A DNA stretch of 64,000 bases from a phage. Positions 5,498-56,165 of this stretch are shown here, piece after piece (the stretch's first letter is position 1; each line of letters begins with the position of its first letter). Location: the sequence record OZ413489.1; one strand, given 5' to 3'. The notes under the pieces are model-generated. The model had not been told where the DNA came from, made no database searches, and worked only from the letters and a program-made list of their open reading frames with translations. Both the position numbers and the translations under genes were made by a program.

Positions 5498-6538
5498 ATG
5501 TCAAAACCTAGTTTTCCATTAGAGATTTGGGCAGAGGAGGATCAGGTTCTGCCTAACACCCACAGACAGAACAGGCTACGCCCGATTGATGATTTGTGGA
5601 GAAAAGGTTGGGATCTTGGTCAAAAGCCCTCATGTGAAGAACTTAACTATATTTTCAATATGCTCGGGACTTGGGCAAAATACATCGCTGACGAGCAGAT
5701 CCCCGCTCAAGAAGGCCGTTATCTGGTACGTGATAATAACTTGAGTGATCTTTTGAACATTCCTGTTGCCCGTAGAAACCTTGGGATTATTACTAAGGAA
5801 GAGGCAGACGCCAGGTATGTAAAAGTTACAGGTGATACAATGACAGGCCCATTGGGTTTGCAACGTATCAACTTTAAAGCTGCCGAGTCAGATAAGGCTT
5901 GGATAGAGACAACTATTGGCCCAGATAAGACAACTCTCGACTTTGGGTTAAGTGATAATACCGGGTCGTTTGATGATGGTGGTACATCTACAGTGGATGC
6001 GTTCCGTTGGAGATTCCAGCCAACTCAGCCGGATATTAATCCAGAGTTCACTTTGATGTACCTTAACGCGATCACGGCTAACCGTGCGCTGTTGAAAGTG
6101 GTAGGCAATGTTGAAGTTGTCGATAACATGAGGTGCAATAACCTTACTATCAGCAATACAGCGACATTCACCAACTGTAATGTGGCTAGTCAGTTGACGG
6201 CTGGGTCAGTGTATGTTAATGGTGGTGCAAGTTGTGACAGTATGGTTGTAAGAAGCCAGCACTGTGTTGTCGGTAACAGAAATGTGGTTCGCTCTGTGAA
6301 CGGAGTGACGGCTAACGGTAACGGTGATGTAACGATCACTATCCCGCAGACAGGTGTGCAAGACATCAGAATCGGTGCAAGACTTGTTGACGGCGTTTCC
6401 GAATCTCCAATTCGCAACGGCTACGTTGTCACAGGCTGGCATTTCGGTGACAAAAAAGAGATGCGTGGTTCAACCTACTGGGCAGGACCTTTACAAAAAC
6501 TTGTAAACGGTCAATGGATCACTGTTAATTATGCATAG
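5498..6538 (+). CDS. Tail fibre protein (receptor-binding candidate), paralogue 1
   Basis: 346 aa; homologous over its full length to 7553-8596; shared C-terminus QKLVNGQWITVNYA; GDTMTGPLGLQRI motif common in tail fibres. Confidence 0.7.
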   Translation: MSKPSFPLEIWAEEDQVLPNTHRQNRLRPIDDLWRKGWDLGQKPSCEELNYIFNMLGTWAKYIADEQIPAQEGRYLVRDNNLSDLLNIPVARRNLGIITKEEADARYVKVTGDTMTGPLGLQRINFKAAESDKAWIETTIGPDKTTLDFGLSDNTGSFDDGGTSTVDAFRWRFQPTQPDINPEFTLMYLNAITANRALLKVVGNVEVVDNMRCNNLTISNTATFTNCNVASQLTAGSVYVNGGASCDSMVVRSQHCVVGNRNVVRSVNGVTANGNGDVTITIPQTGVQDIRIGARLVDGVSESPIRNGYVVTGWHFGDKKEMRGSTYWAGPLQKLVNGQWITVNYA

Positions 6539-46079: not shown

Positions 46080-46560
46080 GATTTCTAAAATGGATTTCCT
46101 CCTTTTGATATTTCACCGGGCCGGATATTTTAAAATTCTTAGAAAATCAGAAAATGGATCGAAAACTAAAATGGATTTTTCAGAGTAGGCGCGACAAGCT
46201 GAATAACTCATCCTATCGTTTGCACCATATTCCAGGCCACCATTATAGATTTCCCACACATGCTAACCTCCCTCTACTAGAACTTCCTCCACTTACCCTT
46301 GACCTTCTATGGTAACAATCTAACCGCTATCTTGAAGTTGCTGTGCAGCTTTCCAGGTACTCGATCTACTTTTCATTTCAGGGCTTGGATTTTCTGAAAA
46401 TTTTTCTCGATAAATTTCTCAGTACTCGATCTGTTTTTCGTTTTCTGAATCGGATTTTCTGGAAATCGTTCCGGCTCTCGACCTGAAATTTTTGGGGACG
46501 AAATCGATTTTTCGTTTTCAGAAATGGATTTTTAAAATTTCTATATGGGAATATTTTATG
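46080..46560. repeat. Iteron-rich AT-rich non-coding region (candidate origin / protein-binding array)
   Basis: Repeated words: aaaatggat(t/c) x4, gtactcgatct x2, ggattttctg(a/g)aaat x2, tttcgttttc x2; no convincing ORF. Confidence 0.5.
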
Positions 46561-47986: not shown

Positions 47987-48014
47987 TTGACACGCTGCAA
48001 AATTCAAGTAAACT
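47987..48014 (+). promoter_or_regulatory. sigma70-type promoter
   Basis: TTGACA-16 bp-TAAACT, followed by a 5'-UTR hairpin. Confidence 0.5.
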
Positions 48015-48024
48015 AGGCACAAAA

Positions 48025-48043
48025 GGCGGGAATGTTTCCCGCC
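48025..48043 (+). promoter_or_regulatory. 5'-UTR stem-loop
   Basis: ggcggg-aatgttt-cccgcc between the promoter and the RBS of 48063. Confidence 0.45.
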
Positions 48044-48062: not shown

Positions 48063-48458
48063 ATGAATAAAAACGTACGCCGCATCATGAACGAACTGGC
48101 AAACGATGAAAAAATTATTGATATGCATTTGGTCAACATTTGCCGCCGTTGTGTAACATATAACAACCGCGCCGCAAAAGCGCGTGAGATGAACGCAAAA
48201 GGCACCTTAAAGCCCTTTCAGGTGGTTGTAAAATCTATGACCAGTGCAGCAGGCCAGGCGCATGACCACAACAACGGGAGCACTAATATTGATCCATCTT
48301 ACGTAATGAAACGGATCCGGACTTGCAAGAATAAAGAGCAGGTGTATAACGTCATAGATTGGCTGGACTCCCTGGGTGACGTGGTTTACAATAGGTTTTC
48401 TGCAGCTATTGAAATTCAGTTAGACAGGTTGGACGGGAAAGTACTGAAAACTTACTGA
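48063..48458 (+). CDS. Hypothetical protein
   Basis: 131 aa; RBS aaggaaaaag. Confidence 0.5.
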   Translation: MNKNVRRIMNELANDEKIIDMHLVNICRRCVTYNNRAAKAREMNAKGTLKPFQVVVKSMTSAAGQAHDHNNGSTNIDPSYVMKRIRTCKNKEQVYNVIDWLDSLGDVVYNRFSAAIEIQLDRLDGKVLKTY

Positions 48459-48460
48459 GT

Positions 48461-48506
48461 TTATTTTTAGATGGCCTTGACTCCAGGGCCATCAATAAAG
48501 TAAACT
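48461..48506 (+). promoter_or_regulatory. Repeated 46-bp promoter/palindrome element, copy 1
   Basis: ttatttttaGATGGCCttgactccaGGGCCATCaataaagtaaact: a TTGACT -35 inside an inverted repeat, TAAACT at -10 spacing; near-identical copies at 49089 and 52803. Confidence 0.5.
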
Positions 48507-48538
48507 AATCCCAGTTAAGCGAAAAAGGAGGCTTGAAG

Positions 48539-48658
48539 ATGAGCACTACACGCCAGCACACAAAGGTAACTATTATCGTTTGCATCATTGGTTATATCCT
48601 GGCGCAAATGTTGATGGGTAGCGCTAACGGTGTCGCAAAATTTTTCTTAAACTTTTAA
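48539..48658 (+). CDS. Small hydrophobic peptide (39 aa)
   Basis: RBS aaaggagg, 8 nt before the ATG; one predicted TM helix (TIIVCIIGYILAQMLMG). Confidence 0.45.
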   Translation: MSTTRQHTKVTIIVCIIGYILAQMLMGSANGVAKFFLNF

Positions 48659-48686
48659 TTGACAAGCTAACTTAGATCAGTATACT
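48659..48686 (+). promoter_or_regulatory. sigma70-type promoter
   Basis: TTGACA-16 bp-TATACT. Confidence 0.55.
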
Positions 48687-48698
48687 AAACACATAAAC

Positions 48699-48711
48699 GG
48701 GAAAACTTCCC
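48699..48711 (+). promoter_or_regulatory. 5'-UTR stem-loop
   Basis: ggg-aaaactt-ccc between the promoter and RBS aaaggagaaaac. Confidence 0.4.
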
Positions 48712-48735
48712 AGAACACCAAAAGGAGAAAACATT

Positions 48736-49086
48736 ATGAATACTTCCATCACTATGACCGCCGAAGAAAAAGCCCTGCAGATCGCCGCTCTGAAAAAACA
48801 GATTGCAGAACTTGAAGACAAGATCGACAATTTTGAAATCGACGAAGACAAATACGACGATAAATATGATGAATGGTTGGACGAGATCTACGGCGAAATT
48901 ATGATCGGAAACATTTCTTTTCTTCCGTCGCGTATCCTCAAGGAGCTAGATCCTATCGCTTACCGCTGCGGATTTAGCGACTACATCGACAGCCTGGATA
49001 TTGAGGACGATGAAGAATACCAGGAATTGCAGACAGAGCTTGAAGAAGTGAAAGAAGAGCTTGCAGAACTGGAAGAAAACGAGTAA
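48736..49086 (+). CDS. Hypothetical acidic coiled-coil protein
   Basis: 116 aa; heptad-like N and C termini; very acidic. Confidence 0.5.
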   Translation: MNTSITMTAEEKALQIAALKKQIAELEDKIDNFEIDEDKYDDKYDEWLDEIYGEIMIGNISFLPSRILKELDPIAYRCGFSDYIDSLDIEDDEEYQELQTELEEVKEELAELEENE

Positions 49087-49088
49087 GA

Positions 49089-49134
49089 TTATTTTTAGAT
49101 GGCCTTGACTCCAGGGCCATCAATAAAGTAAACT
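49089..49134 (+). promoter_or_regulatory. Repeated 46-bp promoter/palindrome element, copy 2
   Basis: Identical core to copy 1, directly after the stop at 49086. Confidence 0.5.
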
Positions 49135-49175
49135 TTATACTGTTAACACTGAACTAATGCATAGGAGTTAAAACC

Positions 49176-49421
49176 ATGGCAGCACTAATCACCAAATATT
49201 ATGCCCCTACCAACACCAAAAGCGCCCGTATCATGGTAAAAGGCTTCGGACGTAAAAAGGTTTACACTTGGGATTATTCCCTAGACATGGAAGACAACTA
49301 CACCAACGCGATGACCGATTTTATTAATGAACTAAATAAGCAGATCTTAACCAATTATAAGGTGACCGACATCGCCTATGTTGGGGAAGGTGGGATCTGT
49401 TTTGTCGGTATTGTCAAATAA
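49176..49421 (+). CDS. Hypothetical protein
   Basis: 81 aa; RBS ataggagtt. Confidence 0.5.
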   Translation: MAALITKYYAPTNTKSARIMVKGFGRKKVYTWDYSLDMEDNYTNAMTDFINELNKQILTNYKVTDIAYVGEGGICFVGIVK

Positions 49422-49496
49422 GCTGTTTTTTCGGTGGTCCTGGTGGCAGGGCCATCTATAAAGATAGTTTATTAACACCATGAAAGGAGAAAGTAC

Positions 49497-49850
49497 ATGA
49501 TCAGCGGGGCTAGTTTTATTATTGGCGCTATTGCTACAGCTTTAATTGTAAACAAGATCCAGGATAAAAAGGAAAGAGGAAGTACCGCCCTTGCAGAATA
49601 TCCATTTTGGACATTCAACGATAACGAAGATTATATTATAAAGTATAAAAATAAAGAAGGTGACCAAGTAACACCGCGACCGATCCCGGCTTACAAGATG
49701 CAGGAAACACTATACCGCTTGGAGGCAGGGGGCGCAAAAATTGTGGACTTTTGGGGATACGATCACACAGATCAGGAAGTTATAAAGCGCCGTATCCGGG
49801 CTATTCAGGCCAATATTGAAGTTAGCAAGGGGGGAATATATGAAGATTAA
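49497..49850 (+). CDS. Hypothetical protein with N-terminal hydrophobic segment
   Basis: 117 aa; RBS aaaggagaaag; N-terminal TM-like helix. Confidence 0.5.
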   Translation: MISGASFIIGAIATALIVNKIQDKKERGSTALAEYPFWTFNDNEDYIIKYKNKEGDQVTPRPIPAYKMQETLYRLEAGGAKIVDFWGYDHTDQEVIKRRIRAIQANIEVSKGGIYED

Positions 49851-50037
49851 TTTTGAGAAAATTGTAAAGCGATCTCATGATTCCGAAGAGCTGCCGGAAC
49901 GCCGCCAGCGTAACAATAAACTGAATAAGCCAAAAAGATTTGGGAAGATCTGGCGGAATCATTATGATCGTAAATTGCCGGGCCTCCTTTTGGAACGTGA
50001 ACGGCAGGCGGAACGATACCGCCACAAAGGCAACTAA
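49840..50037 (+). CDS. Hypothetical small basic protein
   Basis: Track ORF from 49816; ATG at 49840 after RBS aagggggg. Confidence 0.4.
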   Translation: MKINFEKIVKRSHDSEELPERRQRNNKLNKPKRFGKIWRNHYDRKLPGLLLERERQAERYRHKGN

Positions 50038-50044
50038 CAACCAA

Positions 50045-50073
50045 CGCCCCGCCATCGTGCGGGGCTTTTTATT
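50045..50073 (+). terminator. Rho-independent terminator
   Basis: gccccgc-catcgt-gcggggc + tttttattt. Confidence 0.75.
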
Positions 50074-50195
50074 TCTACCCTACGAATAGCGCCCCTGGTT
50101 GGCCCCACAACGCCCTAAAAGCCCCCTACCCATGCAATCCCATTTCTTAACCTGAAAACATCGTCAAAGGCTGTTTTAAAGCGTTAAAAATATTG

Positions 50196-50223
50196 TTGAC
50201 ATCTAAAATATTCTAGATATACT
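50196..50223 (+). promoter_or_regulatory. sigma70-type promoter
   Basis: TTGACA-16 bp-TATACT. Confidence 0.55.
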
Positions 50224-50258
50224 AATCACATCAAAGCGAGAAGTAAGGAGTAAACGCC

Positions 50259-50519
50259 ATGCGTAAATTAAAAAATTTTGATAAAGTTGATATTGTCCTG
50301 AATAATTTTTACTACTGCAATAACAAGGCCGTTTGGTGGCGTGATAGTTCCACCGATAAAGTCAAGGCGCGCTTTCTCCAGGGGCACTGGCAAGGCCGCC
50401 CAGTGATTAAAATCATGGGGCAATTGGTAGCGTTTAAAAATTGCCGCCGTGTTGATGACGTTGAAGAGATTTTAAACATTTTGCGCCACAATAATTTAAA
50501 AAATAGTGTTGACAAGTAA
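50259..50519 (+). CDS. Hypothetical protein
   Basis: 86 aa; RBS taaggagtaaac. Confidence 0.5.
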   Translation: MRKLKNFDKVDIVLNNFYYCNNKAVWWRDSSTDKVKARFLQGHWQGRPVIKIMGQLVAFKNCRRVDDVEEILNILRHNNLKNSVDK

Positions 50520-50536
50520 ATCTCAATAAGTATAAT
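50509..50536 (+). promoter_or_regulatory. sigma70-type promoter
   Basis: TTGACA-16 bp-TATAAT overlapping the stop of 50259-50519. Confidence 0.6.
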
Positions 50537-50546
50537 TAAAAACACA

Positions 50547-50565
50547 GGCGGGAAAACTTCCCGCC
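50547..50565 (+). promoter_or_regulatory. 5'-UTR stem-loop
   Basis: ggcggg-aaaactt-cccgcc, then RBS acaggagaaaat. Confidence 0.45.
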
Positions 50566-50593
50566 ACTAACAAAGAAAACAGGAGAAAATATC

Positions 50594-51217
50594 ATGACCA
50601 CCGTTAACATTACCACAGGTTACAATTTATCTTTCGACGTGCTGACCGACGAACAAAAAGAAAAAGCCGTGGAAATGGTCCGCGAAAGAGAAGAACACAG
50701 CGGGGATAACTTTTTTGCAGAAAGTGTAATTGAGTACTATAAAGAATATGTTTTTCCAGAGTACGGCCTTGAAGATACCGATGTACATTGGTCAGGCTTT
50801 TGGTGCCAGGGTGACGGCGCGTCAATCAGTGCGGAAAACGTGGATTTAGAAAAATTCTTGCGTAAAGTCAAGTCTCTGACTAAATTCCGCTCAATTCGTC
50901 ACTTGTTCGGCACAATGCACGATGGCGAGTTATCCGCAAGTGTTGAGCGTGATCCATATAGCCGCTATAGTCACGAAAACACTGTAAACGGATACATCGA
51001 TACTACATGGCTAGACCTGACCACCAAACAAGAAAACAAAGTGGAAGATCTGGAAGAGCTGATCACCGAGACGGTACGGGAGTTATCCCGCAAGGTTTAC
51101 GTAGACCTGGAGGAGGCCTATCTTGAACAATTCACCGCCGAAAACTTGATCGGCCTTATCGAGGCCAATGATTGGCGGTTTGATGTCGATGAACACGGTA
51201 AGATGACTTTTTCATAA
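50594..51217 (+). CDS. Hypothetical protein
   Basis: 207 aa. Confidence 0.55.
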   Translation: MTTVNITTGYNLSFDVLTDEQKEKAVEMVREREEHSGDNFFAESVIEYYKEYVFPEYGLEDTDVHWSGFWCQGDGASISAENVDLEKFLRKVKSLTKFRSIRHLFGTMHDGELSASVERDPYSRYSHENTVNGYIDTTWLDLTTKQENKVEDLEELITETVRELSRKVYVDLEEAYLEQFTAENLIGLIEANDWRFDVDEHGKMTFS

Positions 51218-51225
51218 ATAAAGTG

Positions 51226-51253
51226 TTGCAATAACCTAAAAACCTGCTATATT
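51226..51253 (+). promoter_or_regulatory. sigma70-type promoter
   Basis: TTGCAA-16 bp-TATATT, followed by a 5'-UTR hairpin. Confidence 0.45.
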
Positions 51254-51262
51254 AAAACTCAA

Positions 51263-51281
51263 GGGGCAAGACGTTTGCCCC
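51263..51281 (+). promoter_or_regulatory. 5'-UTR stem-loop
   Basis: ggggcaa-gacgt-ttgcccc, then RBS aaagaggtaaac. Confidence 0.45.
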
Positions 51282-51305
51282 ACACAAAACAAAGAGGTAA
51301 ACATT

Positions 51306-51686
51306 ATGAAAAACACTACTAAAGCTATTGACACCGTTATGTTTAACCTGGTTACATTCCGTGAAGATATGAAAGATCTTCCACGTGAAACAGTGTGCGA
51401 TCACATTGAAAACTATCGCAAACTAATCAAAGAGTTGCCTTTAAAACGTGACCAGTATGCGGCTAACGCTATGCTTAACGCCATGATCAAAAAGATGATT
51501 CAGTGTGATTTAACTCTGGCCTATGATTATGCAGGTGGTCGTTTTGCAGTATACAATCAGCCCGTGCCTGGTATGAGCACCACCGAAGAATTGCACGCGT
51601 TAAATCTGAAACAAGATGTATGGGATAACATGCCCCGCGTGGTGGTGTGGGCAGAAAGCGGAAAGATTTACGGCGATAATTTTTAA
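51306..51686 (+). CDS. Hypothetical protein
   Basis: 126 aa. Confidence 0.5.
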   Translation: MKNTTKAIDTVMFNLVTFREDMKDLPRETVCDHIENYRKLIKELPLKRDQYAANAMLNAMIKKMIQCDLTLAYDYAGGRFAVYNQPVPGMSTTEELHALNLKQDVWDNMPRVVVWAESGKIYGDNF

Positions 51687-51696
51687 TCAGGTAACA

Positions 51697-51722
51697 GGCG
51701 GCATATTTGCCGCCTTATTGTT
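51697..51722 (+). terminator. Rho-independent terminator
   Basis: ggcggc-atattt-gccgcc + ttattg. Confidence 0.55.
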
Positions 51723-51750
51723 AAACAGAACTGCAAAAGAGGTACATAGA

Positions 51751-52122
51751 ATGGAATTTATTATTTTGGCTGTAGTAGTTGCCTTGTTCAACGCCTGGAT
51801 CGCTGGCAAGATAGGTAGATCCGCTTTTCTATGGTTTGTTATATCTATTTTCCTGGGAGTGGTTGCAACTATTGTATTGGTTATCCTTGCAATTGTTGAC
51901 AAGGGCGATAATAGAAAGGGTAAAGTGTTTTCCGACCTGTATGACGCACAAACGTTTGTCAACGCCTATTATAGTGATCTTCCAGTCTCCCTACGCTGCA
52001 GCCTGGCACAACAGGTTTTTGATGAGGCTAAAACCAGAGACCAAGCCCATGAGATATGTTTAACTGAAGCGGATCGCCTATTTGAGAGGAATAGAAAATA
52101 TGTGGACCAGCCGTTTAAATAA
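51751..52122 (+). CDS. Membrane protein (two predicted TM helices)
   Basis: Track ORF from 51616 overlaps the upstream gene and terminator; ATG at 51751 follows RBS aaaagaggtac; begins MEFIILAVVVALFNAWIAG. Confidence 0.5.
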   Translation: MEFIILAVVVALFNAWIAGKIGRSAFLWFVISIFLGVVATIVLVILAIVDKGDNRKGKVFSDLYDAQTFVNAYYSDLPVSLRCSLAQQVFDEAKTRDQAHEICLTEADRLFERNRKYVDQPFK

Positions 52123-52321
52123 CGCCACGTTAATTAATCCCTTTAGTGAAGATTTGAAGCCAGCCGCCTGGCGTGACGGATTCAATAACGAACGCTTTAT
52201 TTTCAGGCCTGATCTTGAGGAATTTTATAACAATGGATCGAACAACAGCGGAGATAATTTTTCTTGTGGTGTGCGTGGTGATAGGACTCCTGGGGGCCAT
52301 TGTAAACCACGTCACTACTAA
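52100..52321 (+). CDS. Hypothetical small protein (uncertain frame)
   Basis: ATG with RBS gagaggaa; overlaps an alternative-frame peptide (52233-52358) that has a clear TM helix, so one of the two is probably spurious. Confidence 0.3.
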   Translation: MWTSRLNNATLINPFSEDLKPAAWRDGFNNERFIFRPDLEEFYNNGSNNSGDNFSCGVRGDRTPGGHCKPRHY

Positions 52322-52341
52322 CAGGAGGGAAGGGGGAGACG

Positions 52342-52461
52342 ATGACAACCAAAGATAAGCCATGCGCTGATAAGGTGCGCCGTGTTATGGTATGGCTTGA
52401 GATTATCGCCCTTGAAATATTGTTAGGCGTAGGGATGTACTTTATCGCTGTAAGTAACTAA
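52342..52461 (+). CDS. Small hydrophobic peptide (39 aa)
   Basis: RBS gggggaga before the ATG; TM helix VMVWLEIIALEILLGVGMYFIAV; terminator follows. Confidence 0.45.
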   Translation: MTTKDKPCADKVRRVMVWLEIIALEILLGVGMYFIAVSN

Positions 52462-52463
52462 GA

Positions 52464-52496
52464 GCGGCCCCCGATCATGGGGGCCTATCTTTTAAA
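52464..52496 (+). terminator. Rho-independent terminator
   Basis: ggccccc-gatcat-gggggcc + tatcttttaaaaaattttt. Confidence 0.65.
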
Positions 52497-52515
52497 AAAT
52501 TTTTCTTCCGGGGTG

Positions 52516-52544
52516 TTGCAATCCGGTCCGGAATGTGGATAATA
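52516..52544 (+). promoter_or_regulatory. sigma70-type promoter
   Basis: TTGCAA-17 bp-ATAATA; the -10 region contains TGTGGATAA. Confidence 0.5.
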
Positions 52545-52599
52545 ACAATCAACGGGGAGCTAATCCCCACCACCACAAAAACCAGAAAGGAGAAACAAA

Positions 52600-52800
52600 A
52601 TGAGCAACAATATCCGCGTTATTAACTTCAAAAAAGAAGAAAAAATTGCCGTGCTGATTGACGGTCAAGAAATCTTCAAGGGCGACTATGAAGATCATCA
52701 AACGGCGATTAGTATCACTCGCGTGATTGGTTATCATAATTTCTACCCCCAAGGCGCTGAGGCAGCAGTTAAACGAATCAAAGAGATTGTAGGCCTGTAA
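52600..52800 (+). CDS. Hypothetical small protein
   Basis: 66 aa; RBS aaaggagaaac. Confidence 0.5.
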   Translation: MSNNIRVINFKKEEKIAVLIDGQEIFKGDYEDHQTAISITRVIGYHNFYPQGAEAAVKRIKEIVGL

Positions 52801-52802
52801 AA

Positions 52803-52848
52803 TTTATTTTTAGATGGCCTTGACTTCAGGGCCATCGATAAAGTAAAT
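52803..52848 (+). promoter_or_regulatory. Repeated 46-bp promoter/palindrome element, copy 3
   Basis: aatttatttttagatggccttgacttcagggccatcgataaagtaaatt; two substitutions relative to copies 1 and 2. Confidence 0.5.
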
Positions 52849-52893
52849 TTAAACCCTGTTAAAATACCACGCAGTTAACAAGGAGTGATAGAC

Positions 52894-53561: not shown

Positions 53562-53597
53562 GGCCCCTAGCAGGGCCTGCAGCAATATAATCACATA

Positions 53598-53631
53598 AAG
53601 GCCATGCGGTTGCATGGCCTTTATTATTTTG
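53598..53631 (+). terminator. Rho-independent terminator
   Basis: aaaggccatgc-ggtt-gcatggccttt + attatttt. Confidence 0.7.
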
Positions 53632-53678
53632 GCGTTACAACGGCATACGGGGCGCTTAAAAAATTTTTAAAGAAGTAC

Positions 53679-56001: not shown

Positions 56002-56165
56002 TGTGTGGGCGTTTAGACGTCTAGACGGTTGGAAGTCCACAGGTCAATATCTAATCTATCGGCTGCTAACTATATCCCACACATGTGTGGGCGTTTAGAC
56101 GTCTAGACGGTTGGAAGTCCACAGGTCAATATCTAATCTATCGGCTGCTAACTATATCCCACACA
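56002..56165. repeat. Perfect tandem duplication, 2 x 82 bp
   Basis: The unit tgtgtgggcgtttagacgtctagacggttggaagtccacaggtcaatatctaatctatcggctgctaactatatcccaca occurs twice head-to-tail with no mismatch seen; each copy contains the palindrome TAGACGTCTA; the junction forms CCCACACATGTGTGGG. Confidence 0.8.

Follow-up and report, generated by a model that had tools for sequence, protein, structure and literature searches.

In bacteriophage T7, the host RNA polymerase synthesizes a polycistronic early transcript, and the early RNase III sites are placed between its cistrons on the sense strand. The substrates that Escherichia coli RNase III cuts span about two helical turns (PMC1540722, Pertzev and Nicholson), and internal loops limit cleavage to one strand, which leaves protective 3' hairpins (PMC1540722; PMC3867540). 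In the distal box of such substrates, a U-A and then a U.G pair stand beside the tetraloop, and about 11 bp separate the loop from the cut (PMC1540722). Two other kinds of stem-loop are found in comparable positions. The promoter-early stem-loops (PeSLs) of T4-like phages (Arbiol et al. 2010, Comeau et al. 2014) are intergenic motifs repeated between small early genes, in plastic regions of large myovirus genomes, and combine a strong sigma-70 promoter with an effective terminator in dozens of copies. The repetitive extragenic palindromes and bacterial interspersed mosaic elements (REP/BIME) of E. coli are intercistronic hairpins that have no U tract and could shield the upstream mRNA from 3' exonucleases. 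Here we describe an element present in four copies in a 64,000-nucleotide stretch of phage DNA (sequence record OZ413489.1), hereafter referred to as the window. The source is a Vequintavirus (rV5-like coliphage), and between 47 and 54 kb the sequence shares 92-98% identity with more than 100 genomes of this kind. Phages of the rV5 type find wide use in therapy, biocontrol and typing, and almost all of their roughly 75 small early genes are unannotated. We propose, with a probability of about 0.6, that all four are intercistronic signals of the T7 type, at which RNase III processes the mRNA and by which mRNA 3' ends are stabilized.

Strand-specific hairpins at the stop codons of early genes

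A 24-nt core (GATGGCCTTGACTCCAGGGCCATC) occurs on the + strand at 48470, 49098 and 52813, the last with one mismatch, and was absent from all 100 dinucleotide-preserving shuffles. A repeat finder grouped four 49-nt copies, of which those at 48458, 49086 and 52801 are near-identical (A1, A2 and A3, respectively) and the one at 49421 is diverged (B). The 46-mers that the sequence-only reading had placed at 48461 and 49089 are indeed identical. Its third copy is real too, but starts in register at 52804 rather than 52803 and differs from A1 and A2 at three positions instead of two: C>T in the loop, A>G just 3' of the upper stem, and C>T in AAACT>AAATT. A fourth site, thought to carry only an inverted-repeat core, extends from 49418 to 49472 and was found to keep an entire two-tier hairpin including its lower stem.

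As had been noticed, the copies directly follow stop codons and precede small genes. All four begin at, or no more than 3 nt from, the stop codon of an early open reading frame (ORF) on the + strand, and the next start codon lies 24-46 nt downstream of each copy. The stop codons are TGA 48456-48458 for A1 (131-aa gene, 48063-48458), TAA 49084-49086 for A2 (116-aa gene, 48736-49086), TAA 49419-49421 for B, which overlaps it (81-aa gene, 49176-49421), and TAA 52798-52800 for A3 (66-aa gene, 52600-52800). The locus is a long arm of small early genes; a Pfam search with seven flanking proteins returned sub-threshold coiled-coil-type matches only.

When folded as + strand RNA, all four copies adopt the same two-tier hairpin, with an AU-rich lower stem of 10-13 bp, an upper stem of 10 bp, a tetraloop, and an asymmetric internal loop that has 2 nt on the 5' side (UA or UC) and 3 nt on the 3' side (AAU, GAU or UAU). 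Fold energies lie between about -21 and -28 kcal/mol and z-scores between -5.2 and -7.6. In A1 (48458-48506; -25.1 kcal/mol, z -6.6), the lower stem pairs 48458-48467 with 48497-48506, the internal loop consists of UA at 48468-48469 and AAU at 48494-48496, and the upper stem pairs 48470-48479 with 48484-48493 around the tetraloop ACUC (48480-48483). A2 (49086-49134; -21.1 kcal/mol, z -5.2) has its upper stem and loop at 49098-49121 and its 3' internal loop at 49122-49124. B (49418-49472; -27.6 kcal/mol, z -7.4) has a 13-bp lower stem, an upper stem and loop at 49433-49456 with the tetraloop GUGG, and internal loops UC and UAU, as in T7 sites. In A3 (52800-52850; -24.7 kcal/mol, z -7.6), the upper stem and loop occupy 52813-52836, the tetraloop is ACUU, the 3' internal loop is GAU (52837-52839), and the lower stem has an A-U pair where A1 has G-C.

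The fold is specific to the sense strand. The minus strand of B reaches only -9.2 kcal/mol compared to -27.6 kcal/mol on the + strand, because several of its pairs are G.U. From 11 Vequintavirus genomes we assembled 40 copies, which comprise 31 distinct variants. Each of the 31 gave the same + strand dot-bracket structure, at -17.6 to -29.5 kcal/mol, while the minus strand folded worse in 30 of the 31 and equally well in one (A2 of L162), and B copies reached only -7 to -12 kcal/mol on that strand. Furthermore, in an alignment of 29 distinct sequences, 98.3% of the cells at paired positions were standard pairs, compared to 35-56% when the partners were slid. Four lower-stem pairs change on both sides (26 cells: G-C/A-U, U-A/C-G, U-A/G.U/A-U/G-C and A-U/U-A), and none of 500 shuffles equaled the observed covariation score; most of these two-sided changes separate A from B, or A1 from A3, and so represent few independent events, all of them compatible with the helix.

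Orthologues differ mostly in the last two bases of the tetraloop. Four of the six stem substitutions seen in relatives keep a standard pair (three G.U, one restored C-G), and 12% of alignment columns are variable in the elements versus 16-32% in the adjacent intergenic spacers. Relatives were taken from GenBank records, save for one Vequintavirus contig from IMG/VR (L123). At 5714-5771, this contig carries a diverged A1 whose loop (AUAAC) has 5 nt and whose 3' internal loop has 4 nt; the hairpin is kept, the lower stem having changed from U.G to U-A and from G-C to G.U. Given the strand-specific fold, the covariation and the conservation, the selected object is the sense-strand RNA helix.

BLAST found the element in 121 phage records, all of them Vequintavirus and mostly with three copies each. 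A covariance model built on the rV5 element (model R1) detected exactly four copies in the window, with B scoring 69.3 bits, and also four in a complete 135-kb genome. Since the element had no match in 5,426 E. coli genomes, we rejected a host repeat as its source. An Rfam search of 44-58 kb gave a single match overlapping a copy, the rhtB sRNA at A3, with 23.1 bits against a gathering threshold of 55 (E = 4). The element is not marked in the annotations of rV5, isim and EdH4, and is not among the 33 promoters and 20 terminators listed in the rV5 genome paper and its Table S4. We take it to be a so far unannotated member of an established class of signal rather than a system of a new type.

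Comparison with the early RNase III sites of T7

We folded the T7 sites R0.3, R0.5, R1, R1.1 and R1.3 for comparison. The folds consist of a lower stem, a 2-nt loop, a stem of 9-10 bp, a tetraloop and a 3-nt loop (UAU, AAU), and T7 R0.3, R1 and R1.1 have the same 2/3 internal-loop geometry as the element. We take the cut in T7 to fall at the last base of the 3-nt loop. The R1.1 sequence that was folded agrees with the pair numbering U12:G27, C13:G26 and A9:U30 of PMC1540722.

A second covariance model (model R2) was built from the five T7 sites only and searched over both strands of the window without filters. A1 ranked first (29.6 bits, E 6.6e-6), A2 second (28.7 bits, E 1.2e-5), A3 third (22.3 bits, E 1.3e-3) and B fifth (19.3 bits, E 0.013), these E-values being rough as they stem from a shortened calibration. 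The five best matches aligned end to end and in the same register. Three controls spoke for the specificity of these matches. The background maximum was 19.5 bits in 839 kb of unrelated viral loci; these were reused from an IMG/VR search with the 14-base pattern GGGCCATCNATAAAG, which had returned at least 120 unrelated chance loci and was uninformative by itself. In the whole MaxTheCat genome, model R2 found the same sites only. The first 50 kb of PVP-SE1, a Salmonella phage from another genus of the subfamily, searched without filters, yielded no T7-type site (best score, 12.3 bits). In the opposite direction, model R1 applied to 6.3 kb of T7 ranked the T7 R1 site first, the upper stem of R1.1 second and R0.3 fourth, so that the models of the two phages detect each other's sites.

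The likeness extends to the details of the helix. With an upper stem of 10 bp and a lower stem of 10-13 bp in all copies and all 31 variants, the elements have the length of about two helical turns seen in RNase III substrates, and the asymmetric 2-nt/3-nt loop is present in every copy. As in T7, the upper stem (9-10 bp there) is capped by a tetraloop with U-A and U.G pairs near it, the 3' loop reads xAU, and AU-rich sequence makes up the lower stem. The distal box of the A copies consists of a closing G-C, then U-A, then U.G, at the positions that they occupy in R1.1; B has C-G instead of U.G. These three pairs account for the invariance of TTG, and also for the T.G mismatch that is conserved within the DNA palindrome. 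The likeness of TTGAC to a -35 hexamer is a by-product of this arrangement, with UU belonging to the distal box, G to the closing pair and AC to the start of the loop.

The proximal box of the A copies reads U-A, A-U, G-C and an A.A mismatch, the optimum being G-C, A-U/U-A, A-U and A-U/U-A. Position 2, where G-C or C-G is strongly inhibitory, is A-U, and position 3 is G-C, where T7 R1 naturally has C-G.

The element differs from the T7 sites in several respects. It belongs to an unrelated myovirus, its primary sequence is about 45% identical to theirs, and its upper stem (GAUGGCC.../...GGCCAUC) is distinct from that of T7 (AAGGUC.../...UGGCCUU). Two positions of its proximal box are off the optimum, its copies are near-identical and confined to 4.4 kb, and its cleavage is predicted.

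Operon layout and predicted processing

Each intergenic space of the early arm contains either a promoter with a 5' stem-loop, an intrinsic terminator or the repeat element. The elements lie inside operons: the A copies come after the first gene of a promoter and 5'-hairpin module, and B after the next gene. Such modules are located at 47987-48043, 48659-48712, 50509-50565, 51226-51281 and 52516-52572, and intrinsic terminators at 50046, 51696, 52466 and 53595. In a sigma-70 scan, the early promoters near the elements matched 10-12 of 12 consensus positions with spacers of 16-17 bp. Upstream of A1, a promoter on the + strand (TTGACA-16-TAAACT, 47987-48014; 10/12) is followed by a GC stem-loop in the 5' untranslated region (5'-UTR; 48025-48043), and its predicted transcript runs through the 131-aa gene into A1, with no + strand terminator-like site before A1. 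A second + strand promoter with a 5'-UTR stem-loop (TTGACA-16-TATACT, 48659-48712), whose orthologue is annotated as P192 in rV5, would be read via the 116-aa gene, A2 and the 81-aa gene as far as B. This operon is closed by a + strand terminator-like hairpin with a U tract at 50046-50065, and a terminator is annotated at the orthologous place in EdH4. A third, promoter-like + strand site with a 5'-UTR stem-loop (TTGCAA-16-GATAAT, 52516-52572) would lead via the 66-aa gene into A3.

A 13-bp hairpin from the terminator scan, AUAAAGGCCAUGC-GGUU-GCAUGGCCUUUAU, followed by UAUUUUGG, would close the A3 operon at 53595-53624 (+ strand). The same hairpin, taken as 53584-53638 (AAGGCCAUGC-GGUU-GCAUGGCCUU-UAU), ranked fourth in the window with model R2 (22.0 bits, E 1.7e-3). 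Its fold is a continuous 13-bp stem with a U-rich tail, for which neither an internal loop nor a lower stem is predicted. We rejected it as a fifth processing site because of the continuous stem and U-rich tail; it is probably the terminator of the operon, and its likeness to the T7 RNase III consensus is unexplained.

We also observed that the GC-rich stem-loop of the early promoters (e.g. GGGAAAACTTCCC) lies no more than about 10 nt from the -10 hexamer, at about +5 of the transcript and hence at the very 5' end of the mRNA. This repeated promoter and 5'-hairpin module resembles both PeSLs and 5' stabilizer hairpins.

The layout of genes, promoters and terminators suggests that the elements are read through, and no terminator intervenes. 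Polycistronic early mRNAs starting at strong sigma-70 promoters 400-470 nt upstream would thus carry the elements, each of which would fold at the stop codon of its cistron into a two-tier hairpin of about 22 bp. Host RNase III would then make a single cut at the 3' end of the 3-nt loop, predicted at 48496/48497 in A1, 49124/49125 in A2, 49459/49460 in B and 52839/52840 in A3. The upstream cistron would be left with a stable 10-bp 3' hairpin that blocks 3' exonucleases and, together with the 5'-UTR hairpin, would protect its mRNA at both ends. The downstream cistron would be freed as a separate mRNA with an accessible ribosome-binding site; in the folds, the hairpin does not sequester the ribosome-binding site of the next gene. 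The suggestion that the hairpin is an RNA 3'-end signal agrees with this proposal insofar as a conserved sense-strand hairpin matches the architecture of T7 RNase III sites, but the 3' ends would arise by cleavage and not by termination.

Several points weigh against processing by RNase III. Near-identity among the A copies extends to loop positions 1-2 and the flanks and goes beyond what RNase III needs, a uniformity that could reflect gene conversion or an additional sequence-specific partner. The presence of only four copies per 135-kb genome, all within 4.4 kb, is odd for a general processing signal. The match of the proximal box is partial, with U-A instead of the optimal G-C at one position and G-C instead of the optimal A-U at another. 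B scores at the background level of model R2, and the E-values of that model are approximate throughout. The coordinates of the T7 sites are, we assume, those of Dunn and Studier (1983), with R1.1 alone having been cross-checked. The literature searched contained no Vequintavirus transcriptome or RNase III study, and no transcript or cleavage data. Finally, as regards copy B, substitutions of the distal-box U.G reduced cleavage at least 5-fold in a model substrate (PMC1540722).

Three other features of the window were recorded. At about 53785, roughly 2.3 kb are missing compared to many Vequintavirus genomes: 9,319 bp of OR062525, for example, correspond in two aligned pieces to 7,001 bp of the window, and other relatives diverge at the same point. 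A perfect tandem duplication of an 82-bp unit (56002-56165, 100% identity) lies in a stretch without obvious genes; the unit begins with TGTGTGGG and ends with CCCACACA, an 8-bp terminal inverted repeat. At 46347-46532, where only short ORFs are found, three degenerate direct repeats of about 47-57 nt are spaced by 65-74 nt with 70-74% identity, and the last of them overlaps a long AT-rich hairpin (46488-46525).

Alternative readings and cassette exchange

A fairly unlikely alternative is that RNase III leaves the hairpin uncut and that it serves as a generic element of RNA stability or regulation, either a REP-like barrier to 3' exonucleases that acts after cleavage further downstream or the binding site of a phage or host protein. 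Evidence for a selected sense-strand structure does not by itself identify the enzyme, and the conservation of the A copies exceeds what the structure requires: across genomes, hardly any variation is seen in loop positions 1-2, in the internal loops or in the 3' arm (AAUAAAGUAAACU). A very similar 3' arm also occurs in Seuratvirus hairpins with different upper stems, which fits a sequence-specific partner. However, this alternative leaves unexplained the match to T7 in register, in the 10-bp upper stem, in the UA/UG by the loop and in the 2/3-nt loop with xAU. Absence from the E. coli genomes argues against a host REP-type repeat; REP/BIME sequences are host repeats with another consensus and a simple stem, whereas the element has an internal loop of the RNase III type. 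Furthermore, the element overlaps neither a ribosome-binding site nor a start codon, and so is no obvious translational operator.

One of the two options in the sequence-only reading was an operator-controlled promoter. According to this view, the A copies would be sigma-70 promoters (-35 TTGACT, 18-bp spacer, -10 TAAACT/TAAATT) of the small downstream genes, possibly with a repressor bound to GATGGCC-N10-GGCCATC. In the promoter scan, all three A copies do appear as TTGACT-18-TAAACT/TAAATT, each matching at 9 of 12 positions. TTGAC is invariant in 22 A-type sequences from the Vequintavirus genomes fetched, where variation falls on the sixth and least critical -35 position; the T-rich upstream flank resembles an UP element, and some PeSL stem-loops of T4-like phages overlap a -35 hexamer (PMC2839356). 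However, 9/12 is the chance level of the scan, which found 46 sites where 29 ± 6 were expected, and the 18-bp spacer compares poorly with the spacers and scores of the phage's own early promoters. Near-consensus hexamers at 16-18 bp are not found in all copies: B has no -35-like hexamer and a difference between its half-sites at 2 of 7 positions, yet its hairpin is complete, and A1 of L123, in which indels stretch the spacing to 20 bp, has TTGATA with the hairpin likewise kept. The C/T base of the "-10" covaries with the base that it pairs with, about 46 nt upstream. The symmetry of a palindromic operator is lacking as well, since the half-sites of B (GGTGGTC/GGCCATC) are asymmetric, G.U pairs make the DNA palindrome imperfect, three stem substitutions pair only as + strand G.U, and the lower stem covaries. 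Moreover, the element is absent from the rV5 promoter table and the rV5 annotation, and only four copies exist per genome. We consider this explanation improbable, even though the three A copies may have weak promoter activity.

It is also conceivable that the element is primarily a DNA-level recombination module, similar to PeSLs, that bounds cassettes and promotes their insertion, deletion or exchange. In ECP26 (L163, 6228-6279) and ime (L164, 7001-7051), we found a single hybrid copy that has A1's left flank and A2's right flank. Both phages lack 628 bp comprising one promoter and exactly the two genes, of 39 aa and 116 aa, that lie between A1 and A2 (window 48461-49134). The single hybrid copy and the precise loss are what recombination between the direct repeats would produce; the repeats thus act as substrates of recombination in the way PeSLs do in T4-like phages, and the A copies, being near-identical direct repeats, can serve as homologous substrates for removal of a cassette. 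Homologues of the 81-aa gene, which lies between A2 and B, are bounded by related hairpins in Seuratvirus and preceded by a T7-type RNase III site in Przondovirus, and PeSLs are themselves stem-loop and promoter cassettes found at indel borders (PMC2839356, PMC4122927). Nevertheless, any direct repeat of 46-49 bp recombines, so the deletion may be a by-product. Recombination needs identity and not structure, and the strand-specific G.U pairs and the compensatory changes of B stay unexplained in this view.

The comparison with PeSLs is mixed. Like them, the element has an AT-rich flank, a stem-loop that can overlap a -35-like hexamer, and a flanked cassette that is deleted in some natural relatives. 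Unlike them, it shows a weak promoter match (none in B), has four copies per genome instead of dozens, has a conserved two-tier RNA helix, and has no U tract, hence not the terminator that PeSLs provide. Of the features that characterize PeSLs, only the location at indel borders was found. We regard recombination as the primary role of the element as very improbable. An intrinsic terminator was rejected, as AAUAAAGUAAAC follows the hairpin, no U tract is present on either strand and none of the four copies appears in the terminator scan.

The 81-aa gene (49176-49421) has homologues in unrelated phage families. In the Seuratvirus phages WildeMaa (L172, 2415-2473 and 2737-2793) and SD04 (L173), the homologue is flanked on both sides by two-tier hairpins anchored at stop codons. 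These resemble the element in starting at stop codons, in their AU-rich lower stem, internal loop and 10-bp upper stem, and in a very similar 3' arm, AAUAAG(C/U)(A/C)AACU. They differ from it in an unrelated upper stem, a 5-nt loop and internal loops of 3/2 or 2/1. Model R1 scored them at 21.7 and 18.8 bits; model R2 did not detect them, and they are undescribed in the literature searched. In the T7-like Przondovirus K10PH82C1 (L171, 4221-4272), a T7-type RNase III site directly precedes the homologue (44.6 bits with model R2). No two-tier hairpin was found at the homologue from a Pseudomonas phage. Taken together, the cassette loss and the occurrence of related hairpins next to a homologous gene in other phage families suggest that mRNA-processing signals and the modular exchange of genes are linked. 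A more speculative extension, which we think unlikely, is that the hairpins are the borders of horizontally mobile early-gene cassettes, in which a small gene and its flanking RNase III-type hairpins move among unrelated families of enterobacterial phages, namely Vequintavirus (myoviruses), Seuratvirus (siphoviruses) and the T7-like Przondovirus (podoviruses).

If the four elements are RNase III signals, concrete transcript boundaries follow from their positions, the TTGAC motif should not be annotated as a promoter, and the covariance model derived from T7 could be used to find such sites in other phages. Should the hairpins also travel with their genes, they would provide transcript insulation in a new genome as well as homology for insertion and excision, an RNA-processing analogue of PeSL shuffling. 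Processing at the elements would cut the early operons into hairpin-capped mono- or dicistronic mRNAs, and the strategy of T7 would thereby operate in an unrelated myovirus that depends on the host RNA polymerase.

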